Below are positions 4,054-63,842 of a DNA stretch of 64,000 bases, one piece after another. The DNA is taken from the NCBI RefSeq assembly GCF_048403405.1, contig NZ_CP183129.1; one strand, written 5' to 3'. A model generated the notes under the pieces. The model had not been told where the DNA came from, searched no databases, and was given only the letters and a program-made list of their open reading frames with translations. Positions within the stretch are counted from its first letter, which is position 1. The number at the start of each line of letters is the position of its first letter. The translations under genes were made by a program, and so were the position numbers. Source of the DNA: Escherichia coli. GTDB lineage: Bacteria > Pseudomonadota > Gammaproteobacteria > Enterobacterales > Enterobacteriaceae.

Positions 4054-6195
4054 TCAAAATTCCATTTTCACCGTGAATTGCACTTCACGCGGATCGCCAA
4101 TCTGATTCCCCAGATTATTTGTGGCGATGGAAGAGGTGTAATACGTTTTATCAAACAGGTTTTTGACGTTTAATTGCAGTGTGACCGGATACTGCAATTT
4201 CATTTTGTATGCGGCGAAGGCATCGGCAACGAAATAGCCTGGCAGATAATAGTCAGCCCCATTGGTTGCCGAACGACGGCTTACGCCATGTCCACCACCG
4301 CCAAACGTCAGTGTGTTATTGCCTGGCATGTTATGAATGTCATAGGTCAGGAATAGCGAACCGGTATGACGAGGAACATTCGGCAATGGTTTCCCTGCAT
4401 AATCAGGATCTTCCAGAACCTTAGCATCGGTATAGCCGTAGCTGGCAATGATATTAATGTTTTCAGTTAATGCTCCCGCAAGGTCGACTTCTACCCCTCT
4501 TGAACGAACGCGGCCTGCCGTTTTGGCGATGGTTTCATCACCAATACTTTCGGTATACAACACGTTACGTTTATGGATATCAAACAGCGCAATATCTGCG
4601 GTGATACCATCGAACAGCTCGAATTTTGCCCCGACTTCGTAAGCATTAGATGATTCCGGTGGAAGATCTCCGATGTAGCTGGCAATTGACGATTGCGGCA
4701 TAAATGTTTGCGAATAATTAGCAAATAAGGATACCGATGGCGTCAGTTTGTAGACTAACCCCAGTTTGGGCGTCCATTGTTCATCGCGGCTGTCAGTATT
4801 GACATTAAAAGGACGGCCTTTACCCGCATACTGCGTGTAATACTGATAGCGGATCCCGGCGACGGCAATCCAGTTATCGGTCAGATAGAGCGCGTCCTGT
4901 GCATAAGCTGAGTAGCTCTCCTGTTTGATCGTCTGATCGCTGTCCGACGCCGAGACAGTTGTGCATTTGCTGGTATTGCCGTAAACAGGGTTGTAGATAT
5001 TGAAATCTTTAGCGTTTTTACAGCGAATCATATCTGTGCGCAGAAGATCATAATATTCATATGACACCCCACCCAGAATCTCATTATAGAACCCAGCAAT
5101 ATCAACATTCCCTTGCAGATCCGCACGAGTAGCATGCATACGCTGGGTAGATCCCTGAGTTGCATCAACACGCCGTGTCAGCGTTCCTGTCGTTGCATCA
5201 TACGCGGTAACACGAGCCTGATTATCGCCGTATTTATCCTGGCTGTAGCTGTAATCAAAGCGCGCTGTCCACTGGCTATTGAGATGATATTCTGCGTTGA
5301 GTTGCGCCAGATCGGACTGACCATCTGTAATATTAAACGGTTCGTCAAAACGTATTTTTCGATCAACGTTTACGGGCTGTTTCGTCGTAAGGTCGAAAAT
5401 CGTTCCACGATCGAACGGAGTTTTATAGTCCCGATGGGAATAGAGCATGGTTACTGTTGCATTATCACCAAACCAGGTGAGTGACGGGGCAATAAATGTA
5501 CTGCGCTCTTTACCGAAGTTTCGCCAGTAATCTTCATCCTGCACTTCCCCCGTCAGGCGGTATGCCAGCTGAGTGCCTTCAATGGGACCTGTGATATCAA
5601 GTTGCCCAGTGCCTCCGCCAAAACTGGAGGACGTGGCTGAGACAGAACCATGGAATGTTTTTTCCGGGCGCTTGGTCACGACGTTAATCAATCCACCAGG
5701 ATCGAGAATGCCATACAGCGTGGAGGCCGGACCTTTTAGCACTTCCACACGTTCTGTGGCGGCGTTGAAACTGCGAGGAAGTACAGTTCGCAGGCCGTTG
5801 GTCATGATGGAGCCATCCCGGTTAGCACCAAACCCACGACGTACAAAGGCGTCCTGAGTTCCGCCTAATGTATTGGTCTGTACCACGTTACTGACGTTAT
5901 AAAGCGCTTCATCCAGCGTCGTTGCATTCTGATTTTCCAGAACCTGATCGCTAACCGTATTGACCACCTGCGGGATATCCAGCATCGGCATATCGGTTAA
6001 TGTCGCCATGGAGGTGCTCAGAGGTTGATAACCATCGGTCGCCTCAGTTGCGGTATTTGCATCCGCTGTAACAGTGATTGTTTCGCCATCTTTGGTCGTT
6101 GCAGTGTCGGTTGCATGAATCATTGGTGCTGCAAAGAGCAGTGAAAAGAGCGCCCGACCTTTGATTCCTGAGAATGAAGGTGTGAACTTAGCCAT
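4054..6195 (-). CDS. TonB-dependent siderophore outer-membrane receptor
   Basis: 713 aa; signal peptide; TonB-box-like ETITVTA; plug and beta-barrel features; C-terminal aromatic residue (ends ...KMEF); not part of the K-12 parE-ygiN junction as I recall it. Confidence 0.9.
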   Translation of the reverse strand: MAKFTPSFSGIKGRALFSLLFAAPMIHATDTATTKDGETITVTADANTATEATDGYQPLSTSMATLTDMPMLDIPQVVNTVSDQVLENQNATTLDEALYNVSNVVQTNTLGGTQDAFVRRGFGANRDGSIMTNGLRTVLPRSFNAATERVEVLKGPASTLYGILDPGGLINVVTKRPEKTFHGSVSATSSSFGGGTGQLDITGPIEGTQLAYRLTGEVQDEDYWRNFGKERSTFIAPSLTWFGDNATVTMLYSHRDYKTPFDRGTIFDLTTKQPVNVDRKIRFDEPFNITDGQSDLAQLNAEYHLNSQWTARFDYSYSQDKYGDNQARVTAYDATTGTLTRRVDATQGSTQRMHATRADLQGNVDIAGFYNEILGGVSYEYYDLLRTDMIRCKNAKDFNIYNPVYGNTSKCTTVSASDSDQTIKQESYSAYAQDALYLTDNWIAVAGIRYQYYTQYAGKGRPFNVNTDSRDEQWTPKLGLVYKLTPSVSLFANYSQTFMPQSSIASYIGDLPPESSNAYEVGAKFELFDGITADIALFDIHKRNVLYTESIGDETIAKTAGRVRSRGVEVDLAGALTENINIIASYGYTDAKVLEDPDYAGKPLPNVPRHTGSLFLTYDIHNMPGNNTLTFGGGGHGVSRRSATNGADYYLPGYFVADAFAAYKMKLQYPVTLQLNVKNLFDKTYYTSSIATNNLGNQIGDPREVQFTVKMEF

Positions 6196-6295
6196 TTAGT
6201 CTGTTATCCCAAAAACTCACGGATTGTCGTGAGTGAAAATTGTTTCTTGTTGCTCACTAAGCACTATCCGTTTGTTATTTCACCATCGGATATGT

Positions 6296-6314
6296 AATTG
6301 AGAATCATTCAACC
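6296..6314. promoter_or_regulatory. Possible Fur box in the divergent receptor/ABC-transporter promoter region
   Basis: gtaattgagaatcattcaa matches about 12 of 19 positions of the Fur consensus GATAATGATAATCATTATC, with a conserved AATCATT core; weak on its own. Confidence 0.3.
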
Positions 6315-6568
6315 ATGCGGTGATGTAGTAGTAAATGAGAAATAACAAAAAATTGCTACATGTGTTTTTATGAGAGGTTAATGCAATTCAATTGATGGTA
6401 ATTTATTAATATTTAATGGTTTTATTTTTATCTTTAAAAATATTTCACCTGTTATTTACCTTGTTTTTGTATGGATTTTAACTTCTTGACTACTACATTT
6501 TGTGGCGTCAAACTCTCAAAGGAGAATGAGTTTTATTTTTGTTTGTCTTTGATTAAGTTGGCGTACAC

Positions 6569-11635: not shown

Positions 11636-12217
11636 TTAACCAAAAATTTCCACAAGATGCTTGCGATATTCTTCAGTATAGCGGGGAACATCAGGCATTT
11701 TTATCACGTCATTAGCGATAAATGTCGGCAGCGGTTCCATGCCAAGGAATTGGTTTGCTTTATGGAACGGCAGATACACACCGTCAACGCCAACGCCGTG
11801 GAAGAACTGATCTTTTTCGGTGAAGGCTTCCATTGGTGCGTTCCAGGTCAGAGAAAGCATATATTTTTTGCCCTGTACCAGGCCGCCGGAACCGTATTTT
11901 TTCGACGGATCTTTGCGGGTACGACCATCGCTGGCATACAGCGTCCCGTGACCTTCGGTGAATACATCATCAATGTATTTTTTCACTGTCCACGGCGCGC
12001 CCATCCACCAGCCTGGCATCTGCCAGATCACCACATCAGCCCAGAGAAAGTTTTGTACTTCCGCTTTGACATCGTAGTCGCTGTCGGCGCGAACGATGCG
12101 GACATCATGCCCGAGGTCGCGCAACGTGCCATCCGCGACTTCGGTCAGGGTGTCGTTCAGTTGACCATTGGAGTGGGCGAATTTTTTCGCGCCGTTGATA
12201 ATCAGGATGTTGCTCAT
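11636..12217 (-). CDS. mdaB: NADPH:quinone oxidoreductase MdaB
   Basis: 193 aa; flavodoxin-like quinone reductase; synteny. Confidence 0.93.
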   Translation of the reverse strand: MSNILIINGAKKFAHSNGQLNDTLTEVADGTLRDLGHDVRIVRADSDYDVKAEVQNFLWADVVIWQMPGWWMGAPWTVKKYIDDVFTEGHGTLYASDGRTRKDPSKKYGSGGLVQGKKYMLSLTWNAPMEAFTEKDQFFHGVGVDGVYLPFHKANQFLGMEPLPTFIANDVIKMPDVPRYTEEYRKHLVEIFG

Positions 12218-12278
12218 TTTTTAACCTCAAGGTGAGACGTTTGTCGACTATAGTACGTCACAGAGCGGTACGGTGAAA

Positions 12279-12318
12279 TTAGCAAAATGTGCAAAGTCTT
12301 TTGCTAATTTAGCAAAAG
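12279..12318. promoter_or_regulatory. Candidate operator: perfect 10-1-10 palindrome plus a third half-site, upstream of mdaB
   Basis: cttttgctaa-t-ttagcaaaag at 12298-12318 is a perfect inverted repeat; a third copy, ttagcaaaat, lies at 12279-12288; located 60-100 bp upstream of the mdaB start codon. Confidence 0.4.
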
Positions 12319-12466
12319 TCTGATCTTGCTCTGATTCACCGATGCGGGATAAATATTTTCTGAAAATGACAATACTGAAATCAACTTCCTATAAGTTCCC
12401 ACAGGAGAGATGTATTATGTAAATGATAAAGTAGTTTTTCGGAAAAAATAATCATGGAGAATATAT

Positions 12467-12946
12467 ATGTCAAATATCATATACTTATCAATTAAAGGAA
12501 AAACACAAGGTTTGATCTCTGAGGGCTGTGGTTCGTATGCATCTATTGGTAATAAATATCAAATAAATCATGTGGATGAAATTTTTGTTTTACAGTTCGA
12601 CCATTCTTTAAGTCGAGAATATAATGTAGTGCATCATCCCATAAAATTTTACAAGCCAATAGATAAATCCTCTCCTTTATTAAATGCTGCTCTTTCTGAA
12701 AATGAAGAGTTATCAGCTGTATTTAATTTTTATAGAATTAATTCTGGCGGTTGTATTGAAAGGTTTTACACAATTGAATTGCAAGGGGCATATTTATCGA
12801 ATATTCTGACTTGTTATCCACACTCAATTACACATGCGGGTAATCAACCGGAAGAGGTCATTGTTCTTAATTATAAAAATATAACATGGAAGCACCATAT
12901 CGCGAGTACGGAATCATATAGCTGTTGGGAAGAAAGGATTTTTTAA
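12467..12946 (+). CDS. hcp: Type VI secretion Hcp-family protein (orphan hcp)
   Basis: 159 aa; Hcp-like blocks IYLSIKGKTQGLISEGC, HHPIKFYKPIDKSSPLL and NYKNITWKHH; GGAGA ribosome-binding site 6 nt upstream; AT-rich gene. Confidence 0.8.
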   Translation: MSNIIYLSIKGKTQGLISEGCGSYASIGNKYQINHVDEIFVLQFDHSLSREYNVVHHPIKFYKPIDKSSPLLNAALSENEELSAVFNFYRINSGGCIERFYTIELQGAYLSNILTCYPHSITHAGNQPEEVIVLNYKNITWKHHIASTESYSCWEERIF

Positions 12947-12948
12947 AT

Positions 12949-13659
12949 ATGAAAAGCGATCTCACTATAAAAAATAGATATTGTACAATTCCACAAACGA
13001 AGTTCCGTAAATGGGATGAAATGGACGTTTTACTCTGGAAGTTAGGAAAAAATGATTCGCGTCGCCGTTCAGGAGTATATTATTTAAATGCTTATAAAGA
13101 TGCATATGTACAATATAATAGGGACAAAATAATTAAACATGCATATGCCGCAGGGATTCGTCCAGAGTTATTGGGCGGCGTGGCCTGGATTGAGTCAGGA
13201 GGTATGCCTGAAAATTATAAGTTTCAGATATATGAAACAAAAAGAATGATCGGATCGTTAGATATGCCTGAAAATAAAACATCATTTGGCTCAATGGGTA
13301 TACAAATACGAACCGCAGCGATTACTCTAGGCCTTGACCCTTCAGAATTAACTACCAGAAATCAGTTAGAGTTAGCGACATGCCTGATGGAAGATGATTT
13401 TACCTTTAAAATTGCTGCTACTCATTTAAGAGATCTTGCCCTTTTTGATTATCCCTCTTCGGCAACACTGTATATGACGAATGAGCAGTATATTATGGCT
13501 GGTATTAGATATAATCGTGGTGTTGAACGAGATTTGGGTTTTTTTATTTATTTAATTAATAATTTGCCTGCGCGTGATACAGATGATTATAAATTCATCT
13601 CTTATGGTATGAGGTTGTTAGAGATTAGAGAACATATCAAAAAATTGATCAATGAGTAA
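12949..13659 (+). CDS. Hypothetical protein with lysozyme/lytic-transglycosylase-like motifs; candidate Hcp-associated cell-wall-targeting effector
   Basis: Start set at the ATG at 12949 (GAAAGGA ribosome-binding site) 2 nt after the hcp stop; motifs WIESGG, FGSMGIQI and IRYNRG resemble the soluble-lytic-transglycosylase E-S / GLMQ / AYNAG pattern; function is inferred. Confidence 0.5.
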   Translation: MKSDLTIKNRYCTIPQTKFRKWDEMDVLLWKLGKNDSRRRSGVYYLNAYKDAYVQYNRDKIIKHAYAAGIRPELLGGVAWIESGGMPENYKFQIYETKRMIGSLDMPENKTSFGSMGIQIRTAAITLGLDPSELTTRNQLELATCLMEDDFTFKIAATHLRDLALFDYPSSATLYMTNEQYIMAGIRYNRGVERDLGFFIYLINNLPARDTDDYKFISYGMRLLEIREHIKKLINE

Positions 13660-13665
13660 TCAGAG

Positions 13666-13995
13666 ATGTTAAAAAAACAACTACTATCAATATTTGAAGC
13701 ACTATTATACATAATGCTTACTTATTGGTTAATAGATGCTTTTTTTGCTTTCAATAAGTATGACTGGATGCTTGAGTCGGGAGACAATATTTGCAGTATA
13801 CCTTCCGTTTCAGGCGAAGATCGTATATTGCAAGCAATGATTGCAGCATTTTTTCTTCTGACGCCACTTATTATTCTTATCTTAAGAAAACTCTTTATGC
13901 GGGAAATGTTCGAGTTTTGGCTATATGTATTCACGCTCGTTATTTGTTTGGTTTGTGGTTGGTGGCTTTTTTGGGGACGGTTTATATTTTGCTAA
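13666..13995 (+). CDS. ygiZ: Small inner-membrane protein (about 3 transmembrane helices); K-12 YgiZ occupies this position; candidate immunity protein
   Basis: 109 aa with three hydrophobic segments; starts 7 nt after the preceding gene; K-12 has the about 110 aa membrane protein YgiZ between mdaB and qseC (recollection); the immunity role is inferred. Confidence 0.6.
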   Translation: MLKKQLLSIFEALLYIMLTYWLIDAFFAFNKYDWMLESGDNICSIPSVSGEDRILQAMIAAFFLLTPLIILILRKLFMREMFEFWLYVFTLVICLVCGWWLFWGRFIFC

Positions 13996-55041: not shown

Positions 55042-56112
55042 ATGAAGCTGGTTGAACACTACATCATGCGTGGTACGCGCCGTCTGGTGCTGATTATCGT
55101 CGGTTTTCTGATCTTTATTTTCGCCAGCTACTCCGCACAGCGTTATCTGACCGAAGCGGCAAATGGGACATTAGCTCTTGATGTTGTGCTGGATATCGTT
55201 TTCTACAAAGTGCTGATTGCACTGGAGATGTTGTTACCTGTTGGACTGTATGTGTCAGTTGGCGTGACGCTAGGGCAGATGTATACCGATTCGGAAATCA
55301 CAGCTATCTCTGCGGCGGGGGGCAGTCCGGGACGCTTGTACAAAGCCGTTCTTTATCTGGCGATACCGCTAAGTATTTTTGTCACCCTTCTGTCGATGTA
55401 TGGTCGTCCGTGGGCTTATGCGCAGATTTATCAACTGGAGCAACAGTCACAGTCGGAGCTGGATGTTCGCCAGTTGCGGGCAAAGAAATTTAACACTAAC
55501 GATAACGGACGAATGATCCTTTCGCAGACGGTTGATCAGGATAATAATCGCCTGACTGACGCGCTGATTTATACTTCTACTGCCAATCGAACCCGCATTT
55601 TCCGCGCCCGTTCGGTTGATGTGGTTGACCCATCACCTGAGAAACCGACCGTTATGTTGCATAACGGGACCGCCTATCTTCTCGATCATCAGGGGCGTGA
55701 CGACAACGAACAGATCTACCGTAATCTGCAATTACATCTGAATCCGCTGGATCAAAGCCCTAACGTCAAACGCAAAGCAAAATCGGTCACGGAGCTGGCG
55801 CGCTCCGTCTTTCCAGCCGATCATGCCGAACTGCAATGGCGACAAAGCCGTGGCCTGACAGCATTGTTGATGGCGCTGCTGGCCATTTCATTAAGTCGGG
55901 TAAAACCGCGGCAAGGGCGATTTTCAACATTATTGCCACTGACGTTGCTGTTTATTGCCATTTTTTATGGCGGCGACGTCTGCCGTACGCTGGTGGCTAA
56001 CGGCGCGATTCCCCTCATTCCTGGTTTGTGGTTAGTACCCGGACTCATGCTAATGGGCCTGCTGATGCTGGTCGCACGCGACTTCTCTTTGCTGCAGAAA
56101 TTTTCCCGATGA
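55042..56112 (+). CDS. LptF/LptG-family (YjgP/YjgQ) permease, first paralogue
   Basis: 356 aa; N-terminal pattern similar to LptF (YxxRxxxxxxxxxxxxF, TESEIT-like TDSEIT); polytopic. Confidence 0.8.
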   Translation: MKLVEHYIMRGTRRLVLIIVGFLIFIFASYSAQRYLTEAANGTLALDVVLDIVFYKVLIALEMLLPVGLYVSVGVTLGQMYTDSEITAISAAGGSPGRLYKAVLYLAIPLSIFVTLLSMYGRPWAYAQIYQLEQQSQSELDVRQLRAKKFNTNDNGRMILSQTVDQDNNRLTDALIYTSTANRTRIFRARSVDVVDPSPEKPTVMLHNGTAYLLDHQGRDDNEQIYRNLQLHLNPLDQSPNVKRKAKSVTELARSVFPADHAELQWRQSRGLTALLMALLAISLSRVKPRQGRFSTLLPLTLLFIAIFYGGDVCRTLVANGAIPLIPGLWLVPGLMLMGLLMLVARDFSLLQKFSR

Positions 56113-57188
56113 ATGTTTTCAGTCGCTATTTAATCCGTCATCTCTTTCTCGGTTTTGCCGCCGCCGCAGGGCTATTGCTGCCGCTTTTTACCACCTTCAA
56201 CCTGATTAACGAACTGGATGATGTCAGCCCGGGCGGTTATCGCTGGACTCAGGCGGTGCTGGTGGTGCTGATGACCTTACCGCGTACACTGGTCGAACTT
56301 TCGCCGTTTATCGCCTTATTGGGAGGGATTGTTGGCCTGGGGCAGTTATCGAAAAACAGTGAGCTTACCGCCATTCGCAGCACTGGGTTTTCTATCTTCC
56401 GTATTGCACTGGTGGCGCTGGTTGCCGGGATATTGTGGACTGTTTCGTTAGGCGCGATAGATGAGTGGGTGGCGTCGCCATTGCAGCAACAGGCGCTGCA
56501 AATCAAATCGACTGCCACCGCGTTGGGGGAGGACGATGACATTACCGGCAATATGCTTTGGGCCAGGCGCGGTAATGAATTTGTGACGGTGAAATCGCTG
56601 AACGAGCAGGGCCAGCCTGTGGGCGTGGAGATATTTCATTATCGCGACGATCTCTCGCTCGAATCCTACATTTTTGCACGCAGTGCCTCCATTGAAGACG
56701 ACAAAACGTGGATCCTGCATGGTGTGAATCATAAAAAATGGTTGAATGGCAAAGAAACGCTGGAAACATCAGATAATCTTGCCTGGCAATCGGCCTTCAC
56801 CAGTATGAATCTTGAAGAGTTATCGATGCCGGGAAATACTTTTTCTGTCCGTCAACTTAATCATTACATCCATTATTTGCAGGAAACCGGGCAACCCAGC
56901 AGCGAATACCGCCTTGCACTGTGGGAAAAACTGGGACAACCCATCCTGACCCTGGCGATGATTTTGCTGGCTGTGCCGTTTACCTTTAGTGCCCCGCGTT
57001 CGCCTGGGATGGGTAGCCGTCTCGCTGTAGGCGTCATCGTGGGCTTACTCACCTGGATCAGCTATCAAATCATGGTCAATCTGGGGTTGCTATTTGCGTT
57101 GAGCGCACCTGTTACCGCGCTCGGTTTACCGGTAGCGTTTGTGATGATGGCGTTGAGCCTGGTGTATTGGTATGACAGACAACATTAA
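56109..57188 (+). CDS. LptF/LptG-family (YjgP/YjgQ) permease, second paralogue
   Basis: Start set at the ATG at 56109 overlapping the upstream stop (ATGA); about 359 aa; N-terminus MNVFSRYLIRH resembles LptG. Confidence 0.8.
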   Translation: MNVFSRYLIRHLFLGFAAAAGLLLPLFTTFNLINELDDVSPGGYRWTQAVLVVLMTLPRTLVELSPFIALLGGIVGLGQLSKNSELTAIRSTGFSIFRIALVALVAGILWTVSLGAIDEWVASPLQQQALQIKSTATALGEDDDITGNMLWARRGNEFVTVKSLNEQGQPVGVEIFHYRDDLSLESYIFARSASIEDDKTWILHGVNHKKWLNGKETLETSDNLAWQSAFTSMNLEELSMPGNTFSVRQLNHYIHYLQETGQPSSEYRLALWEKLGQPILTLAMILLAVPFTFSAPRSPGMGSRLAVGVIVGLLTWISYQIMVNLGLLFALSAPVTALGLPVAFVMMALSLVYWYDRQH

Positions 57189-57222
57189 ACCCGCCGTGGC
57201 GCAGCGCCACAGCGGGCTCACA

Positions 57223-58395
57223 TTACTGCTTCAGAGTAGCAAATGCCTGAATGATGGCATCGATTTGCTCACGACTGTGGGCAGCGTTTACGCTACAGCG
57301 CAGCAGCGTGATGCCTGCAGGCGCGGCAGGTGGCAGGATAAGATTCACATAAACGCCCAGCGAAATAAGCTCGCGCCAGATGCGTAAACCTTCCTCTTTC
57401 GAACCGATTATTACTGGCACTACCGGGCTAATATGTGAACTTAACTCATAACCCAGTTTTTGCAGACCGTCATACAGATGGTTGGCATTATCCATCAGCT
57501 TTTGCCGCAACTCTGGTTGTGTAGCAATGGTTCTTAACGACGAGCGCACGGTCGCAATGCAGGACGGAGAAGGAGAGGCGGTAAAAATATACGGGCGGCT
57601 GCCGTAGCGCAGCACTTCCATCGCTTCCGAACCGACAGCAAAACCGCCAATCGAGGCCAGACTTTTACTGAAAGTACCAACGATAATATCCACATCATCT
57701 TCAACGCCAACGGCTTCAGCCAGTCCGCGCCCCGTTGCGCCTAACACGCCAAACGAATGCGCTTCATCGACAATCAAATAACCACCGAGACGACGTTTGA
57801 TATCAACAATTTCCGCCAGCGGCGCAACGTCACCGAGCATACTGTAGATGCCTTCAACGATGATAATCGCCTCTTTTGCCCGTTCACCGAGGCGAACCAT
57901 GCGCCGTTCCAGATCTTTAGCATCGTTATGGCGGAAACGAATAATTTCCGCGCCACCGAGAGAACAGGCGTCATAAATACTGGCGTGGCTGTCGGCATCC
58001 AGTAACACCACGGCGTTATGGTCGGCAAGTGCGCTGATGACGCCTAAATTAGCGGTATAACCGGTTGAAAAAACGATAGCGGTAGGGCGATTAAAAAACT
58101 CGGCGATCTCTTTCTCTAACGCCAGATGCGGCGCATAACTGCCGTTTGCCATACGAGAACCGGTGGTGCCGGTGCCTTGGGCCGCTAACGCTGCCTGACC
58201 TTCGGCGATGGCATCATGATTGAAGGTTAATCCGAGATAATTATTGGTCCCGGCCAGAATCACTTTTTTATTGCCGATCCGGCCTTCGGTGGCGGAATAC
58301 ACTCCATCAATACAGGTACCAAACGGCGTTAACCCGTTGTCACTAAATTGCAGTCGCTCGCCAGCAAGACGCGCATATTTATCGTATAGCCCCAT
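57223..58395 (-). CDS. Alpha-oxoamine synthase, serine-palmitoyltransferase-like (PLP-dependent)
   Basis: 390 aa; PLP-lysine motif GTFSKSLASIGGF closely resembles the bacterial serine palmitoyltransferase GTFSKS signature; class I/II aminotransferase fold pattern. Confidence 0.85.
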   Translation of the reverse strand: MGLYDKYARLAGERLQFSDNGLTPFGTCIDGVYSATEGRIGNKKVILAGTNNYLGLTFNHDAIAEGQAALAAQGTGTTGSRMANGSYAPHLALEKEIAEFFNRPTAIVFSTGYTANLGVISALADHNAVVLLDADSHASIYDACSLGGAEIIRFRHNDAKDLERRMVRLGERAKEAIIIVEGIYSMLGDVAPLAEIVDIKRRLGGYLIVDEAHSFGVLGATGRGLAEAVGVEDDVDIIVGTFSKSLASIGGFAVGSEAMEVLRYGSRPYIFTASPSPSCIATVRSSLRTIATQPELRQKLMDNANHLYDGLQKLGYELSSHISPVVPVIIGSKEEGLRIWRELISLGVYVNLILPPAAPAGITLLRCSVNAAHSREQIDAIIQAFATLKQ

Positions 58396-58643
58396 TATTT
58401 ATTCTCCAGCCATGGAAGTAGTGTTTCCATTAATTGCGCAGGGGTTTTGACATCCAGCAGAATATTAATAGGAATGGAAATATCGAATCTGTCTTCCAGC
58501 ATCATTAAGAGATCCATCACTTTGATCGACTCCAGGCCAAGATCGTTGACGAGATCGCTGTCGGGCTTAATTTCCACACCGTTTTCGACCAAATCCTGTA
58601 AACAGGAAAGGATGTAATCCATTACTATTTCACGATTTACCAT
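58395..58643 (-). CDS. Acyl carrier protein
   Basis: 82 aa; phosphopantetheine-attachment motif DLGLESIKVMDL; stop overlaps the synthase start (TAATG). Confidence 0.85.
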   Translation of the reverse strand: MVNREIVMDYILSCLQDLVENGVEIKPDSDLVNDLGLESIKVMDLLMMLEDRFDISIPINILLDVKTPAQLMETLLPWLENK

Positions 58644-58674
58644 AGAAACGTTAACACACCTTTAAACAAGACAA

Positions 58675-59589
58675 TCAAAATAGCCCGTTGCGTAATGCGT
58701 GTTCCAGGCTAATCCCGGGAAACCAATTAATATCTTCAGAAATACGGTTATTACTTGCTGACCAGTCGGCGTGGGTTAATTCACGGATTTTCGAGCGGGT
58801 CAGCATAGGTTCTTTACCCGCCAGACGGCTCAACGCGGTACTGATATCCGCAAGGCAGGTGAGTACCGACAGAGGAATACCAACCATTCGAACGGAACCA
58901 CAACGGGCGTCGGCGGCAAGCTGTCTTACGCGTTGCCAGTCATAGCCGCCGGCGACGCCATCGCATAATTCATAGGTTTGCGTCTGTACAGTTTCGGCGC
59001 TTAACCACTGCCCCACGGCTTGCGCGAAATCGGTGACGTGCAGGAAAGAGAGCTGTGTATCTGGCGCACCAAGTCGTGGCAGCAGGCCGCGCAGCATCCA
59101 GTCAAACAGCGGTTTTAACTCTTTATCGCCGGGACCATACACGGCTGTCGGGCGAAAAATGCCCAGCGTAATTTCGTCAGCCATTGCGGTCAGTCGTTGT
59201 TCGGCGACGTGTTTGGAATTTGCGTACCAGGAGAGTTCGGGATGGCGCGCCGCCAGCGAAGAGATAAACAGAAAACGTTGGCAAAAGCCGCTCTCTTTTG
59301 CCGCTTGCATCAGTCGCAGGCTGCCGTCAACGTTACAGCGGGTAAAAATCTCTTCTTTGTGCCCGCGCACTTGCCCGGCGCAATGGACCACCGCGCTGGC
59401 TCCGGCAACCAGTTCGCTAAGTGAATGAGTATCTTCCAGAGAACCGCGCACCCAGGTGAGATTATCATTGACGTGAGCGCGGGCAGTACGCGTCAATGCG
59501 CGAACGTGAAAGCCGCGGGCGAGCAGGTTATCGATAATATATTTACCGATAAACCCGGTAGCGCCCGTCACCGCGACAGTTTGATTCAT
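58675..59589 (-). CDS. NAD(P)-dependent epimerase/dehydratase-family (extended SDR) reductase
   Basis: 304 aa; Rossmann motif GATGFIG and catalytic YANSK (YxxxK). Confidence 0.85.
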   Translation of the reverse strand: MNQTVAVTGATGFIGKYIIDNLLARGFHVRALTRTARAHVNDNLTWVRGSLEDTHSLSELVAGASAVVHCAGQVRGHKEEIFTRCNVDGSLRLMQAAKESGFCQRFLFISSLAARHPELSWYANSKHVAEQRLTAMADEITLGIFRPTAVYGPGDKELKPLFDWMLRGLLPRLGAPDTQLSFLHVTDFAQAVGQWLSAETVQTQTYELCDGVAGGYDWQRVRQLAADARCGSVRMVGIPLSVLTCLADISTALSRLAGKEPMLTRSKIRELTHADWSASNNRISEDINWFPGISLEHALRNGLF

Positions 59590-61307
59590 GCCAGGGATTC
59601 CTGCACATGAAGGCTTGCAGCATAAGCCTTCTGATAACGTTTTTTCGCTTCCGCACGGGCAGGCTTGCCGGAGGACGTTCGGGGAATACTGTGGGGCGGC
59701 AACAGATCGATAGCCGCGGTCACGCCAAATTCGCTTTGGATCCGTGCTGCCAGCGCGTGGATAAGCTGCCCGCGACGTTCTTCATCGCTGATCCGACACT
59801 GGATCTGCAAAATGATTTTTTCCTGGGCGGTAACAAAAGCAATCGCATCGCCAGAATGAATTTCCGGTTCCTGTTCCGCAATATATTCAATATCCTGCGG
59901 CCAGATATTACGGCCACGAATAATAATCAGATCTTTAATGCGTCCGGTGACATACAGATAACCGTCCAGCAGATAACCGAGGTCGCCGGTGTCTAACCAG
60001 CCCGTCGCGGCAATCTCGTCTTGCGAAACCTGGTCGCCAAAGTAACCGCTCATCAGGCTGGGGCCGGAGATGCAAATATGGCCTACCACACGTTCCGCGA
60101 CAGGTATACCTGCTTCATTGCGGATTTCAATGCCATGTTCCGGCAACGCTTTACCGCAGTTGACGAAAGTCGATACGGCGCGTGTTTCAGCATCCGGCGC
60201 GACGGCTTTGCCCTGATATTCGAGGATGTCGCGATCCACTTCGTTAACCACAACCCCGGAAGCTTCATCAGAGAAGCTGACAGCCAGCGCATTTTCTGCC
60301 AGTCCGTAGCACGGCATGAAAGTTTTATCGTCAAAGTTGACCTGACGGAAACATTCAGCGAATTGATGGAGTTGTTCTGCGGAGATGGGTTCTGCACCAA
60401 TACCAGCGACGCGCCAGCAGGAAAGATCCAGTTCAGCGAGATCTTTTTCATTCACGCGGCGCTGGCACAATTCATAGCCAAACGGCGGCGCAACGGAAAC
60501 GGTGCCGCGATTTTTACTGATCAATTTAAGCCATTGCAGAGGACGCATGGCAAAATCCTGAGTGCGCAAATAATCTACTGAAAGCTGCGTGGCGACGGGG
60601 GTCAGGAGAAAGCCGACCAGTCCCATATCATGGTAGAAAGGCAGCCAGGAGACGCAGCGGTCGCCAGGGCGTAATTTAATGCCATCGTGGCTTATAGCAC
60701 GTAGATTAGCCATCACTTCGCGATGGGTGATAATGACGCCACGGGGAAAACGGGTGCTGCCGGAGGTGTACTGGAGGTAGGCGATATCGTTCGGAACTGG
60801 ACGCTGGAGCGCAACATCGGCTTCCGGTAATGCCTTAAACCAGGCGTGGCTTAAAACATGTAATTCGGGGTTGTTATGCGTAGCGGCATTGACCAGTGGC
60901 AACCACTCATCACCAGTGATAATGGCTGCGGGCTGGCAACTTGCCAGTAAACCCTGCAGTTTGGCGCTCCAGGAATCCCGCTGACCGACGCCCATTGGAA
61001 TCGCCAACGGGACGGCGACTAAGCCGGCATACTGGCAGGAAAAAAAAGCCTCTACGAACCCGCTACTGGTTTCGGCAATCAGCGCCACGCGATCGCCTTT
61101 TTTCAGGTTCAGCGATAACAACCGCTTCGCACCAGCTTCGGCACGCGCTTTTAACGTCTGATATTCCAGTTGATCTTCAAGTTGGCAACGTCTGTCATAA
61201 AAATTCATTCCGGCGCTACTCAGAGCGGCGTAGTCCAAAGCATCAACCAGCGTTGGAAAATCGGCATAGCGCATAGGTAGGGAATGCGTAAAGATTTTAT
61301 TAGACAT
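59586..61307 (-). CDS. Fatty acyl-AMP ligase / acyl-ACP synthetase (AMP-binding superfamily)
   Basis: AMP-binding motif YTSGSTRFPRGV; 4-bp overlap with the downstream reductase gene; start set at the first ATG (61307) because the tracked ORF begins with TTG at 61334; a start at 61274 is also possible. Confidence 0.82.
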   Translation of the reverse strand: MSNKIFTHSLPMRYADFPTLVDALDYAALSSAGMNFYDRRCQLEDQLEYQTLKARAEAGAKRLLSLNLKKGDRVALIAETSSGFVEAFFSCQYAGLVAVPLAIPMGVGQRDSWSAKLQGLLASCQPAAIITGDEWLPLVNAATHNNPELHVLSHAWFKALPEADVALQRPVPNDIAYLQYTSGSTRFPRGVIITHREVMANLRAISHDGIKLRPGDRCVSWLPFYHDMGLVGFLLTPVATQLSVDYLRTQDFAMRPLQWLKLISKNRGTVSVAPPFGYELCQRRVNEKDLAELDLSCWRVAGIGAEPISAEQLHQFAECFRQVNFDDKTFMPCYGLAENALAVSFSDEASGVVVNEVDRDILEYQGKAVAPDAETRAVSTFVNCGKALPEHGIEIRNEAGIPVAERVVGHICISGPSLMSGYFGDQVSQDEIAATGWLDTGDLGYLLDGYLYVTGRIKDLIIIRGRNIWPQDIEYIAEQEPEIHSGDAIAFVTAQEKIILQIQCRISDEERRGQLIHALAARIQSEFGVTAAIDLLPPHSIPRTSSGKPARAEAKKRYQKAYAASLHVQESLA

Positions 61308-61678
61308 ATACACCACGAAAAAATTGGATATCAAAAATAAAATGACAATAATGCGGTGGATTATATAGGCATAAAAGATAAATGAGATAGTATTTTCATC
61401 AGTGTGAAAATGAACATTGATTTAAATAATGAGTTTGAGTTTTTTTGTTTTTATTGTGAATGATATTTAATTTATGAATGTATTAAGAAGAAGCCTTGTC
61501 CGGTCGCCTTAAATCGACAAAAGGCATTGTGGCGCTTCTGTGTAGTCTCTGACCTTATCGTAATCATTAATAAATGCTATTTATTCGTCGTTTGTATTCA
61601 TTGGGTTGATTATTAAGGTGCCGTTCGTTGCTGTTGCAACCTGTTTGTCACCGTTAATTATTTGTTACCCACAGAACT

Positions 61679-62821
61679 ATGGAATGCGATCTGCTGATGA
61701 TTAAAATTGAAAAAGTAATTAATAAAAATGACCTTAAGGCATTTATCGCTTTTCCGTCATCACTTTATCCCGACGATCCAAACTGGATACCCCCTTTATT
61801 CATTGAACGCAACGAGCATTTGTCTGCGAAAAATCCGGGGACGGACCATATCATCTGGCAGGCGTGGGTGGCAAAAAAAGCCGGGCAGATAGTTGGGCGA
61901 ATTACCGCGCAAATCGATACCTTGCACCGTGAGCGTTACGGTGAAGATACCGGTCATTTCGGCATGATTGACGCCATTGATGATCCGCAGGTTTTTGCCG
62001 CGTTGTTTGGCGCAGCGGAAGCGTGGTTGAAGTCACAAGGAGCAAGTAAGATCAGCGGGCCTTTCAGCCTGAATATCAATCAGGAAAGCGGATTACTGAT
62101 TGAAGGTTTCGATACACCACCCTGTGCGATGATGCCGCACGGTAAACCGTGGTATGCCGCGCATATTGAACAATTGGGTTATCACAAAGGCATTGATTTA
62201 CTGGCGTGGTGGATGCAGCGAACCGATCTTACTTTCTCTCCGGCGCTAAAAAAACTGATGGATCAGGTGCGCAAAAAGGTGACCATTCGCTGCATCAATC
62301 GCCAGCGGTTTGCCGAAGAGATGCTGATCCTGCGTGAGATTTTCAACTCTGGCTGGCAGCATAACTGGGGATTTGTGCCGCTTACCGAACATGAGTTCGC
62401 GACTATGGGCGATCAGCTTAAGTACCTGGTGCCGGACGATATGATCTACATCGCCGAGATTGATTCTGCACCCTGTGCGTTTATTGTCGGCTTACCGAAC
62501 ATCAACGAGGCGATTGCCGATCTGAACGGATCGCTCTTTCCCTTCGGCTGGGCAAAATTGCTGTGGCGTTTAAAAGTCAGCGGTGTGCGAACTGCGCGAG
62601 TACCGCTGATGGGCGTGCGGGACGAGTATCAGTTCAGCCGCATCGGCCCGGTGATTGCGTTGTTATTGATTGAAGCCTTACGCGATCCGTTTGCCCGCCG
62701 GAAGATCGATGCGCTGGAGATGTCATGGATCCTCGAAACCAATACAGGCATGAATAACATGCTGGAACGCATTGGGGCGGAGCCGTACAAGCGTTACCGA
62801 TTGTATGAAAAGCAGATTTGA
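61679..62821 (+). CDS. yghO: GNAT-fold N-acyltransferase-like protein YghO, full length
   Basis: 380 aa intact ORF divergent from the ligase operon; GNAT-like assignment from sequence pattern; K-12 carries only a yghO pseudogene as I recall. Confidence 0.7.
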   Translation: MECDLLMIKIEKVINKNDLKAFIAFPSSLYPDDPNWIPPLFIERNEHLSAKNPGTDHIIWQAWVAKKAGQIVGRITAQIDTLHRERYGEDTGHFGMIDAIDDPQVFAALFGAAEAWLKSQGASKISGPFSLNINQESGLLIEGFDTPPCAMMPHGKPWYAAHIEQLGYHKGIDLLAWWMQRTDLTFSPALKKLMDQVRKKVTIRCINRQRFAEEMLILREIFNSGWQHNWGFVPLTEHEFATMGDQLKYLVPDDMIYIAEIDSAPCAFIVGLPNINEAIADLNGSLFPFGWAKLLWRLKVSGVRTARVPLMGVRDEYQFSRIGPVIALLLIEALRDPFARRKIDALEMSWILETNTGMNNMLERIGAEPYKRYRLYEKQI

Positions 62822-63592: not shown

Positions 63593-63842
63593 TCCCGGAC
63601 CTCGTGCACAGGTAGGACCAATTTTTCTGTTCTTAACTCGCAAAACACGCACATCACGTAAGTGATTACGTTACATCAATTTAACATTAAGTTAACCAAG
63701 GCAAGGTCACAGAGCTGGAAAAAAAATGGTCTGACCGGTAGCTAAAGAGATAGACGAAAACGAAAAGCCCGCTTAATAACTGTTCACAGAAGCAGCGCGC
63801 AAAAATCAGCTGCCACACAACACAACAAAGCGAAGCCTACTC

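Follow-up and report, generated by a model that had tools for sequence, protein, structure and literature searches.

How is the expression of the ceramide genes that many Escherichia coli strains carry controlled? The question arises from a non-coding gap between two divergent genes, aasR and yghO, in a 64,000-nucleotide stretch of E. coli DNA (assembly GCF_048403405.1, contig NZ_CP183129.1; hereafter the window). The gap occupies positions 61308-61678 (371 bp, 32% G+C), i.e. it runs from the ATG of aasR at 61307 on the minus strand to the annotated ATG of yghO at 61679 on the plus strand. Searches with yghO, with H-NS plus serine palmitoyltransferase, and with the BL21/REL606 locus tags found no published work on the regulation of the E. 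coli locus, and no transcription start sites, ChIP, or expression data for the gap were found in the searchable literature.

The gap separates the two arms of a known ceramide locus

The genes on both sides of the gap are the known E. coli sphingolipid (ceramide) locus. On the minus strand, aasR (59586-61307), encoding a fatty acyl-AMP ligase/acyl-ACP synthetase, is the first gene of an operon that continues with an epi/cerR-like reductase gene (58675-59589), acpR (58395-58643), and spt (57223-58395). These assignments follow from annotation and Pfam and, for aasR, also from published work (PMC9386255). The operon (57223-61307) is tightly packed, with genes that overlap or lie 31 nt apart, and Pfam domains in its proteins are Aminotran_1_2, PP-binding, AMP-binding, and Epimerase. 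On the plus strand, yghO (61679-62821) is a homologue of the acyl-CoA N-acyltransferase/bacterial ceramide synthase gene; YghO has no Pfam hit, and its assignment as ceramide synthase rests on PMC9386255. As such, the gene set of a ceramide cluster is complete, i.e. spt, a dedicated ACP, an acyl-ACP synthetase, an epimerase-family reductase, and an N-acyltransferase. A first-pass annotation of this DNA had supposed that the product of the cluster has not been noticed, a view that is outdated: the BL21 orthologues (ECD_02850-02854) have been named and assayed, AasR, AcpR, and Spt of E. coli B have been tested biochemically, and the genes have been assigned to dihydroceramide synthesis (PMC9386255). 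The "sphingolipid operons" of E. coli UTI89, with LptF/G paralogues, are also drawn in a 2026 preprint (bioRxiv 10.64898/2026.04.12.717747).

The segment 61250-61750 is 100% identical to E. coli strain 2012C-4221. In that strain pitB, yghT, yghS, yghR, a yghQ-like flippase gene, a hypothetical gene, a YtfJ-family gene, and lptF/lptG paralogues lie on one strand and converge on the spt, acyl carrier protein, epimerase-family reductase, and fatty acyl-AMP ligase genes; yghO lies opposite the ligase gene and is followed by glcC. The convergent gap between the lptG paralogue and spt (57189-57222) is 34 bp long, 71% G+C, and palindromic (CCGCCGTGGCGCAGCGCCACAGCGGG), and is likely a two-way terminator. 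In the Shiga-toxin-producing E. coli O145:NM strain FWSEC0002, yghO is annotated as a pseudogene with an internal stop (L052, 2929-4071), and the remainder of the fetched stretch is intact.

The interval had been delimited at first as 61335-61678. Such an interval does exist, but its left edge needs correction, because 61334 is merely the TTG of the longest open reading frame (ORF), and PGAP uses the ATG at 61307, a start conserved in other genera as well; 61308-61678 is therefore the better description. The ligase start assigned by PGAP varies between strains, being either 61307 or 61274. From sequence comparison, the start of yghO may be the ATG at 61697 (Met7) rather than the annotated 61679. 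Specifically, the codon at 61697 is ATG in nearly all YghO homologues, many of which align only from residue 5-7, and an AAGG ribosome-binding site precedes the equivalent ATG in other genera; E. coli does not have this AAGG. PGAP gives no annotation between aasR and yghO in any strain fetched. Since the gap is the sole non-coding space upstream of both transcription units, it must carry both promoters, and it is the divergent control region of the known ceramide gene cluster.

Composition of the gap

The G+C content of 61335-61678 (344 bp) is 32.3%, compared with 50.9% for the window, and 1.5% of 344-bp windows have a G+C content as low as this or lower. Between 61300 and 61500, 50-bp bins fall to 16-28% G+C, with most bins at 72-84% A+T, and 61335-61678 includes four A or T runs of at least 5. 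The description of an AT-rich interval of some 340 bp with A/T tracts, lying between a fatty acyl-AMP ligase gene (minus strand) and yghO (plus strand) that diverge from it, is thus borne out. The short direct repeats described with it are at chance level. Both strings that were quoted as examples are found (61433-61446 and 61457-61484); however, comparison with shuffled sequences reveals no enrichment, with 0 direct repeats of at least 7 nt within 40 bp vs 1.5 expected, and 6 of at least 6 nt vs 4.3 +/- 2.9 expected. A repeat tool returned two-copy families only for the gap.

In length and G+C, the aasR|yghO gap is at the AT-rich end of the normal local range and within that range. Promoter-bearing gaps nearby include yghT|yghS (173 bp, G+C 0.30), glcA|sslE (484 bp, 0.31), and glcC|glcD (250 bp, 0.44). 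Of these, yghT|yghS (50558-50730) is divergent, lies upstream of the yghS-yghR-yghQ...lptG2 genes, and holds a perfect 9-nt direct repeat, TGTCACAAT-N7-TGTCACAAT (50624-50648), that may be a regulator site. We found no motif common to this gap, which possibly holds the promoter of the transport genes, and the aasR|yghO gap. Other stretches of low G+C (below 0.30-0.38) in the window are 6067-6401, 12136-13725, and 47808-48157, and the second of these (~1.6 kb) is the most AT-rich part of the window.

A sharp split in constraint across the gap

An alignment of 11 Escherichia sequences (the window, six further E. coli, and four members of other Escherichia lineages) reveals a sharp split, missed by the first-pass annotation, between a 93-bp block as tight as coding sequence and a hypervariable half on the yghO side. 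Next to aasR, only 5 of 93 sites vary (61308-61400; 5.4%), a level similar to that of codon positions 1 and 2 of the flanking genes (5.7% in aasR and 7.7% in yghO) and far from that of position 3 (43% and 38%, respectively). Beyond it lie a T-rich, indel-prone stretch that contains gtttgagttttttt (61401-61450; 19 of 50 sites variable, 38%) and a semi-conserved AT-rich stretch with TGAATG-N12-TGAATG, the second of the quoted strings (61451-61488; 8 of 38, 21%), a repeat that does not exceed chance. The remaining 190 bp on the yghO side (61489-61678) vary at 103 sites (54%). The 93-bp block is significantly less variable than third codon positions (Fisher P = 9e-13), and 61489-61678 is more variable than these positions (P = 0.002), i.e. 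the mark of purifying selection is present in the former and absent from the latter. One third of the gap is strongly constrained, and one half evolves very fast.

The same contrast is visible among complete E. coli genomes. The block is present in 4,145 of 5,426, always as a single copy per genome; it is identical in 2,942 of the 4,145 (71%) and 95-99% identical in 1,202. By comparison, a 93-bp segment on the yghO side (61561-61653) is identical in 77 of 4,130 genomes (1.9%), with a further 1,861 at 90-95% and 481 at 80-90% identity. An internal baseline is provided by glcC|glcD (63593-63842), a divergent gap with promoters for both neighbours. In the same 11 sequences, 13.6% of its sites vary and its conservation is evenly moderate (6-20% per 50-bp bin), whereas the aasR|yghO gap splits into parts with 5% and 54% variable sites.

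Candidate elements in the 93-bp block

The position and conservation of the block suggest that 61308-61400 probably holds the core promoter, operator, and 5' leader of aasR-epi-acpR-spt (minus strand). The best sigma-70-like site in the gap is a candidate -10 element, TATAAT (ATTATA on the plus strand; 61360-61365), that is invariant in Escherichia. A weight-matrix scan pairs it with a putative weak -35, ATCTCA (61383-61388, minus strand; 3 of 6 matches), across a 17-bp spacer. The predicted start would be at ~61353, followed by a predicted AU-rich aasR leader of 46 nt (61308-61353, minus strand) with GGUG three bases before the AUG, and the constrained span would extend from about -47 to +46 relative to this start. 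Facing yghO, a weak promoter-like site (61324-61352, plus strand) reads TTGGAT-17-AATAAT or TGGATA-16-AATAAT, within chance, and a leader from there to yghO would measure about 320-340 nt.

Promoter scores in the gap do not exceed those of shuffled sequence. The weight-matrix scan gives a best score of 10.65 vs 11.5 +/- 1.2 and 80 sites vs 70 +/- 10, and a second tool reports 1 promoter in the gap vs 2.7 expected and none on the minus strand. Because scores are no better than those of shuffled AT-rich sequence, we assign the candidate promoter on position and conservation. A panel of 30 consensus sequences for transcription factors and sigma factors yields no transcription factor consensus in the gap that is significant after multiple-test correction, with CRP, Fur, PhoB, PhoP, PmrA, CpxR, RcsAB, FadR, sigma-E, and sigma-54 all unremarkable. 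No high-confidence CRP ChIP site is listed for the corresponding stretch of the H10407 chromosome. An inverted repeat, TTTTCA-N6-TGAAAA (61393-61410), was dropped because its right arm is not conserved in other Escherichia. A repeat or mobile element was also rejected, as both the block and the G+C-richer island described below are single copy in E. coli genomes.

Outside Escherichia, the gap aligns poorly save for the aasR start region and pieces of the block in Pseudocitrobacter, where TTATAT.G.CATAAAAGRTAAA and GCAATA..GCG recur. Across Serratia and related genera, ~115 nt next to aasR are conserved, and these are in part an N-terminal coding extension and a ribosome-binding site.

Coding-level constraint could also mean that the block acts through a product, either a small RNA or a peptide (small or leader), and not as DNA control sites. 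The level of constraint, equal to that of coding positions, is in line with this, and an 18-codon ORF on the minus strand (61417-61361; MFIFTLMKILSHLSFMPI*) overlaps the block. However, the N-terminal residues of this ORF change non-conservatively in one Escherichia lineage (L003; MFNITPMK...), and a pattern of synonymous change is lacking because the block is invariant at the nucleotide level. There is no ORF of at least 20 codons in the block, and no terminator follows it on either strand. Rfam 15 returns only two chance-level snoRNA matches for 61100-61900 (E = 2.4 and 5.1), and short and long folds of the aasR leader are no better than those of shuffled sequence (z = -0.16 and -1.18). We thus regard an RNA or peptide as very improbable. 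Protein-binding sites that overlap the promoter elements are probably present in the block and would explain its coding-level constraint. At the same time, such constraint over 93 bp exceeds the needs of a plain promoter, which implies a further element in the block and counts against our main explanation of the gap.

The yghO side and the leaders of other genera

Within the hypervariable half lies a G+C-richer island (61486-61560), single copy and with two haplotypes; in 482 of 4,127 E. coli genomes it is only 80-90% identical to the version in the window. These two deeply diverged haplotypes suggest old alleles or recombination on the yghO side. RNA folds of the island are no better than those of shuffled sequence on either strand. 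Indels in 61489-61678 include a 7-bp loss in two lineages (L003 and L006) and an ACAGA duplication in BL21-like strains. The 7-bp deletion removes the -35 of a candidate proximal yghO promoter (61634-61661, plus strand; TTGCAA-16-AATTAT, predicted start ~61668), the score of which is within chance. Next to it, an ArcA-consensus-like direct repeat, GTTAATTATTTGTTA (61653-61667, plus strand), matches at 13 of 15 positions, a level reached in 1% of shuffles and not significant because 30 motifs were tried; its first GTTA is ATTA in L003, L004, and L006.

In other genera, the region upstream of yghO has features of its own. A plus-strand motif, GCATYWARTGNTAAA (core AAAAGCATTAAGTGGTAAAAAT), occurs once per locus in 23 non-Escherichia loci (L007, L008, L010-L020, L022, L023, L026, L031, L035, L037, L039, L040, L044, and L047; e.g. 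L012:5675-5689) and always faces yghO. Its distance upstream of yghO was measured in 16 loci and is 309-369 nt in 11 of them, independently of gap length. The conserved block with AAAAGCATTAAGTGGTAAAAAT may be a yghO promoter or operator that heads a long leader. In several genera, a hairpin (stem base CAATARA...TTTATTG) followed by a T-run is found 32-36 nt before the yghO ATG (L031:5877-6009, L011:5889-6021, L007:5889-6021, and relatives), with about -22 kcal/mol in Erwinia persicina, and this terminator-like arrangement could reflect leader attenuation in those genera. The hand-drawn helix pairs in 61.7% of alignment cells, compared with 31-41% when slid. Its covariation is reached in 14-40 of 500 shuffles, for a helix drawn from one member. 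RNAalifold finds no consensus structure, the homologous gaps of 10 other genera have no Rfam match, and the longer gaps of other genera have no conserved ORF.

Could E. coli yghO likewise be expressed from a distal promoter and controlled through a leader of ~320-340 nt, by attenuation or translational control? The constant distance of GCATYWARTGNTAAA from yghO and the hairpins with T-runs of other genera favor this possibility, and the promoter-like site at 61324-61352 lies at a comparable distance in E. coli, which also has a hairpin at 61627-61640 (plus strand; GTTGC-TGTT-GCAAC). However, profile searches with the motif block and the leader block of other genera find no Escherichia match, and the E. 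coli "leader" would be the most variable part of the gap. The E. coli hairpin is weak, with 5 pairs and a poor T tail, and L003 and L006 have lost half of it, so the features of a leader attenuator are not found in E. coli. Given also the lack of an RNAalifold consensus and the weak helix covariation, we find this control of yghO improbable.

Distribution and origin of the locus

The locus is found at the same site in ~76% of 5,426 complete E. coli genomes. Specifically, a 501-bp query (61250-61750) is covered over at least 80% of its length in 4,132 of them, always in single copy, and among the matches listed yghO and the ligase gene flank the gap in every case. The 3' part of yghO is found in 4,545 genomes. 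In K-12, an IS5 replaces window positions 53335-61718 (8.4 kb). Nine genes are absent through this IS5-associated deletion, which took out the four-gene operon and the whole gap, together with the lptF/G paralogues, and cut off the C-terminus of yghQ and the first codons of yghO.

One genome per species was scanned for the arrangement spt-acpR-epi-aasR <> yghO. It is present next to glcC in E. whittamii and the cryptic Escherichia clades, and it also occurs in Citrobacter, Pseudocitrobacter, Shimwellia, Pluralibacter, Hafnia, Serratia, Erwinia, Pantoea, Tatumella, Rosenbergiella, Sodalis, Cedecea, and Pseudomonas/Stutzerimonas. Across these loci, gap length ranges from 288 to 1,113 bp, and each gap is more AT-rich than its own locus. 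In Pluralibacter gergoviae, a fluoride riboswitch (L010:11320-11389; RF01734, 45.4 bits) lies ~5 kb downstream of yghO and is unrelated.

A close counterpart outside these groups is the locus of Caulobacter crescentus, with spt (CC_1162), acpR (CC_1163), epi/cerR (CC_1164), aasR (CC_1165), aca/bCerS (CC_1154), and lptF2/lptG2; among the species compared, the same five structural genes are clustered only in C. crescentus and E. coli (PMC9386255). LptF/LptG paralogues belong to the sphingolipid loci of both (bioRxiv 10.64898/2026.04.12.717747). The position of the N-acyltransferase gene differs, as in Enterobacterales it stands opposite aasR across one gap, whereas in Caulobacter it is, judging from the locus tags, several genes distant. 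The publications on sphingolipid loci consulted here describe no control region for either the C. crescentus or the E. coli locus.

The proposal that the cluster was horizontally acquired, made in the first-pass annotation, does not agree with the ordinary G+C of the genes (41-55%), the fixed site in a majority of E. coli, and the presence of the arrangement across Enterobacterales and Pseudomonas. Signs of recent acquisition, i.e. patchy distribution, variable site, and atypical composition, were not found, and the absence from K-12 is due to the IS5-associated deletion. The locus looks like an old, widely kept arrangement that was lost in some E. coli lineages, not a recent island.

Expression and H-NS

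The locus is complete in BL21(DE3), where the gap is 98% identical to that of the window. With empty vectors, this strain showed a baseline lipid profile and no 3-oxo-sphinganine in vivo, its extracts showed no serine palmitoyltransferase activity or 3-oxo-sphinganine formation, and labelling experiments reported only the housekeeping ACP, with no band assigned to AcpR (PMC9386255). These negative controls (thin-layer chromatography, enzyme assay, and labelling), which are not a measure of transcription, suggest that BL21(DE3) grown in complex medium at 30 C expresses its chromosomal operon very weakly or not at all. The low or conditional expression that had been predicted for the cluster fits them.

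One explanation is that the gap is an ordinary AT-rich one with weak constitutive promoters, and that BL21 lacks the product through low enzyme flux or missing substrates. The length and G+C of the gap, which are within the local range of promoter-bearing gaps, agree with this, as do promoter-like sites at chance level and the lack of a regulator motif. On the other hand, the 93-bp block is far tighter than the characterised glcC|glcD control region (5.4% vs 13.6% variable), and the missing AcpR band and serine palmitoyltransferase activity in BL21 extracts point to very low protein levels. We consider this explanation rather unlikely.

H-NS silencing of the promoters in the gap is a plausible hypothesis. 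The promoter of sslE (yghJ) is repressed by H-NS and StpA in a temperature-dependent manner and activated by Fis (PMC5012682), i.e. it is under the kind of control that had been proposed for the aasR|yghO gap. The sslE gap, ~10 kb away, resembles ours in being long, AT-rich (484 bp and 0.31 in 2012C-4221), and upstream of an envelope-related operon. It differs in lying between genes of the same direction, whereas the aasR|yghO gap is divergent, and its regulation has been demonstrated experimentally, whereas the aasR|yghO gap is known here from sequence.

Xenogeneic silencing is the silencing by H-NS of AT-rich foreign DNA, and the ceramide cluster would be a case of it if it were a horizontally acquired island with AT-rich promoters coated and silenced by H-NS. 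The two have in common AT-rich promoters of genes that are seemingly silent in the laboratory: the gap is 32% G+C, most 50-bp bins of the 190 bp on the aasR side are 72-84% A+T, H-NS and StpA repress the nearby sslE promoter, which has a similar composition (PMC5012682), and no pathway activity is detectable in BL21(DE3). However, only the gap fits in composition (32% vs 51% G+C). The ceramide genes have a normal G+C content (41-55%), and since they are not AT-rich, an H-NS filament could cover little beyond ~370 bp. A published high-affinity H-NS motif, TCGATAAATT, has a best match of 8/10 in the gap, a level reached in 66% of shuffles. The majority of E. coli also carry the locus, at a fixed site; it occurs in other Escherichia lineages and is apparently ancestral and widespread, and the strong purifying selection on the block favors a maintained, used regulation over silencing alone. 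Silencing of a foreign island is unlikely in our view. Repression of the promoters by H-NS that does not involve an island is a better, still tentative idea, to which we give somewhat less than even credence. H-NS ChIP-seq reads exist for ETEC H10407 (E-MTAB-2917; PMC4287617), a strain that carries the ceramide locus.

Discussion

Our preferred explanation, which we hold with somewhat better than even confidence, is that the gap is the shared upstream region of two divergent units of the ceramide locus, and that its two sides behave differently. Most likely, 61308-61400 would be the working core, in which a sigma-70 promoter combines a perfect -10 (61365-61360) with a poor -35 and starts transcription at ~61353, giving a 46-nt leader. 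The yghO-side 190 bp, AT-rich and fast-evolving, would hold a weak proximal promoter for yghO or else a long leader of that gene. Low basal expression is predicted from the weak -35, the unfavourable ribosome-binding contexts, and the strong AT-richness of the DNA, and expression from such a region would depend on an activator or on the lifting of repression by a nucleoid protein, for which H-NS and StpA are examples. The sequence data establish the layout, base composition, pattern of constraint, and distribution of the gap, as well as its lack of known RNA families and conserved ORFs, whereas promoter positions, silencing, and the nature of a regulator are inferred. In other respects, nothing sets the gap apart from other AT-rich promoter gaps of bacteria, a familiar class of which it is an uncharacterised example.

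A more far-reaching version can be built from the same observations. In it, the 93-bp block would serve a dedicated switch as its operator, and this switch would hold ceramide synthesis off in most E. coli until a specific envelope, host, or nutrient signal arrives. Upstream of their ceramide synthase gene, other Enterobacterales would have a conserved leader element not described before, composed of GCATYWARTGNTAAA and a leader of ~330 nt, with a terminator-like hairpin in some genera. Sphingolipids would in that case be made conditionally by E. coli, and the switch that governs them would be accessible through this gap. We see this version as speculative and give it about as little weight as the weak constitutive promoters discussed above.

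E. coli is not usually seen as a maker of sphingolipids, but about three quarters of sequenced strains carry an intact locus for ceramide synthesis and transport, including BL21, ETEC H10407, and the uropathogenic UTI89. Because K-12 has deleted the locus together with its control region, the large regulatory datasets for K-12 say nothing on this gap. The confinement of constraint to a defined 93-bp block next to aasR offers a concrete experimental target.
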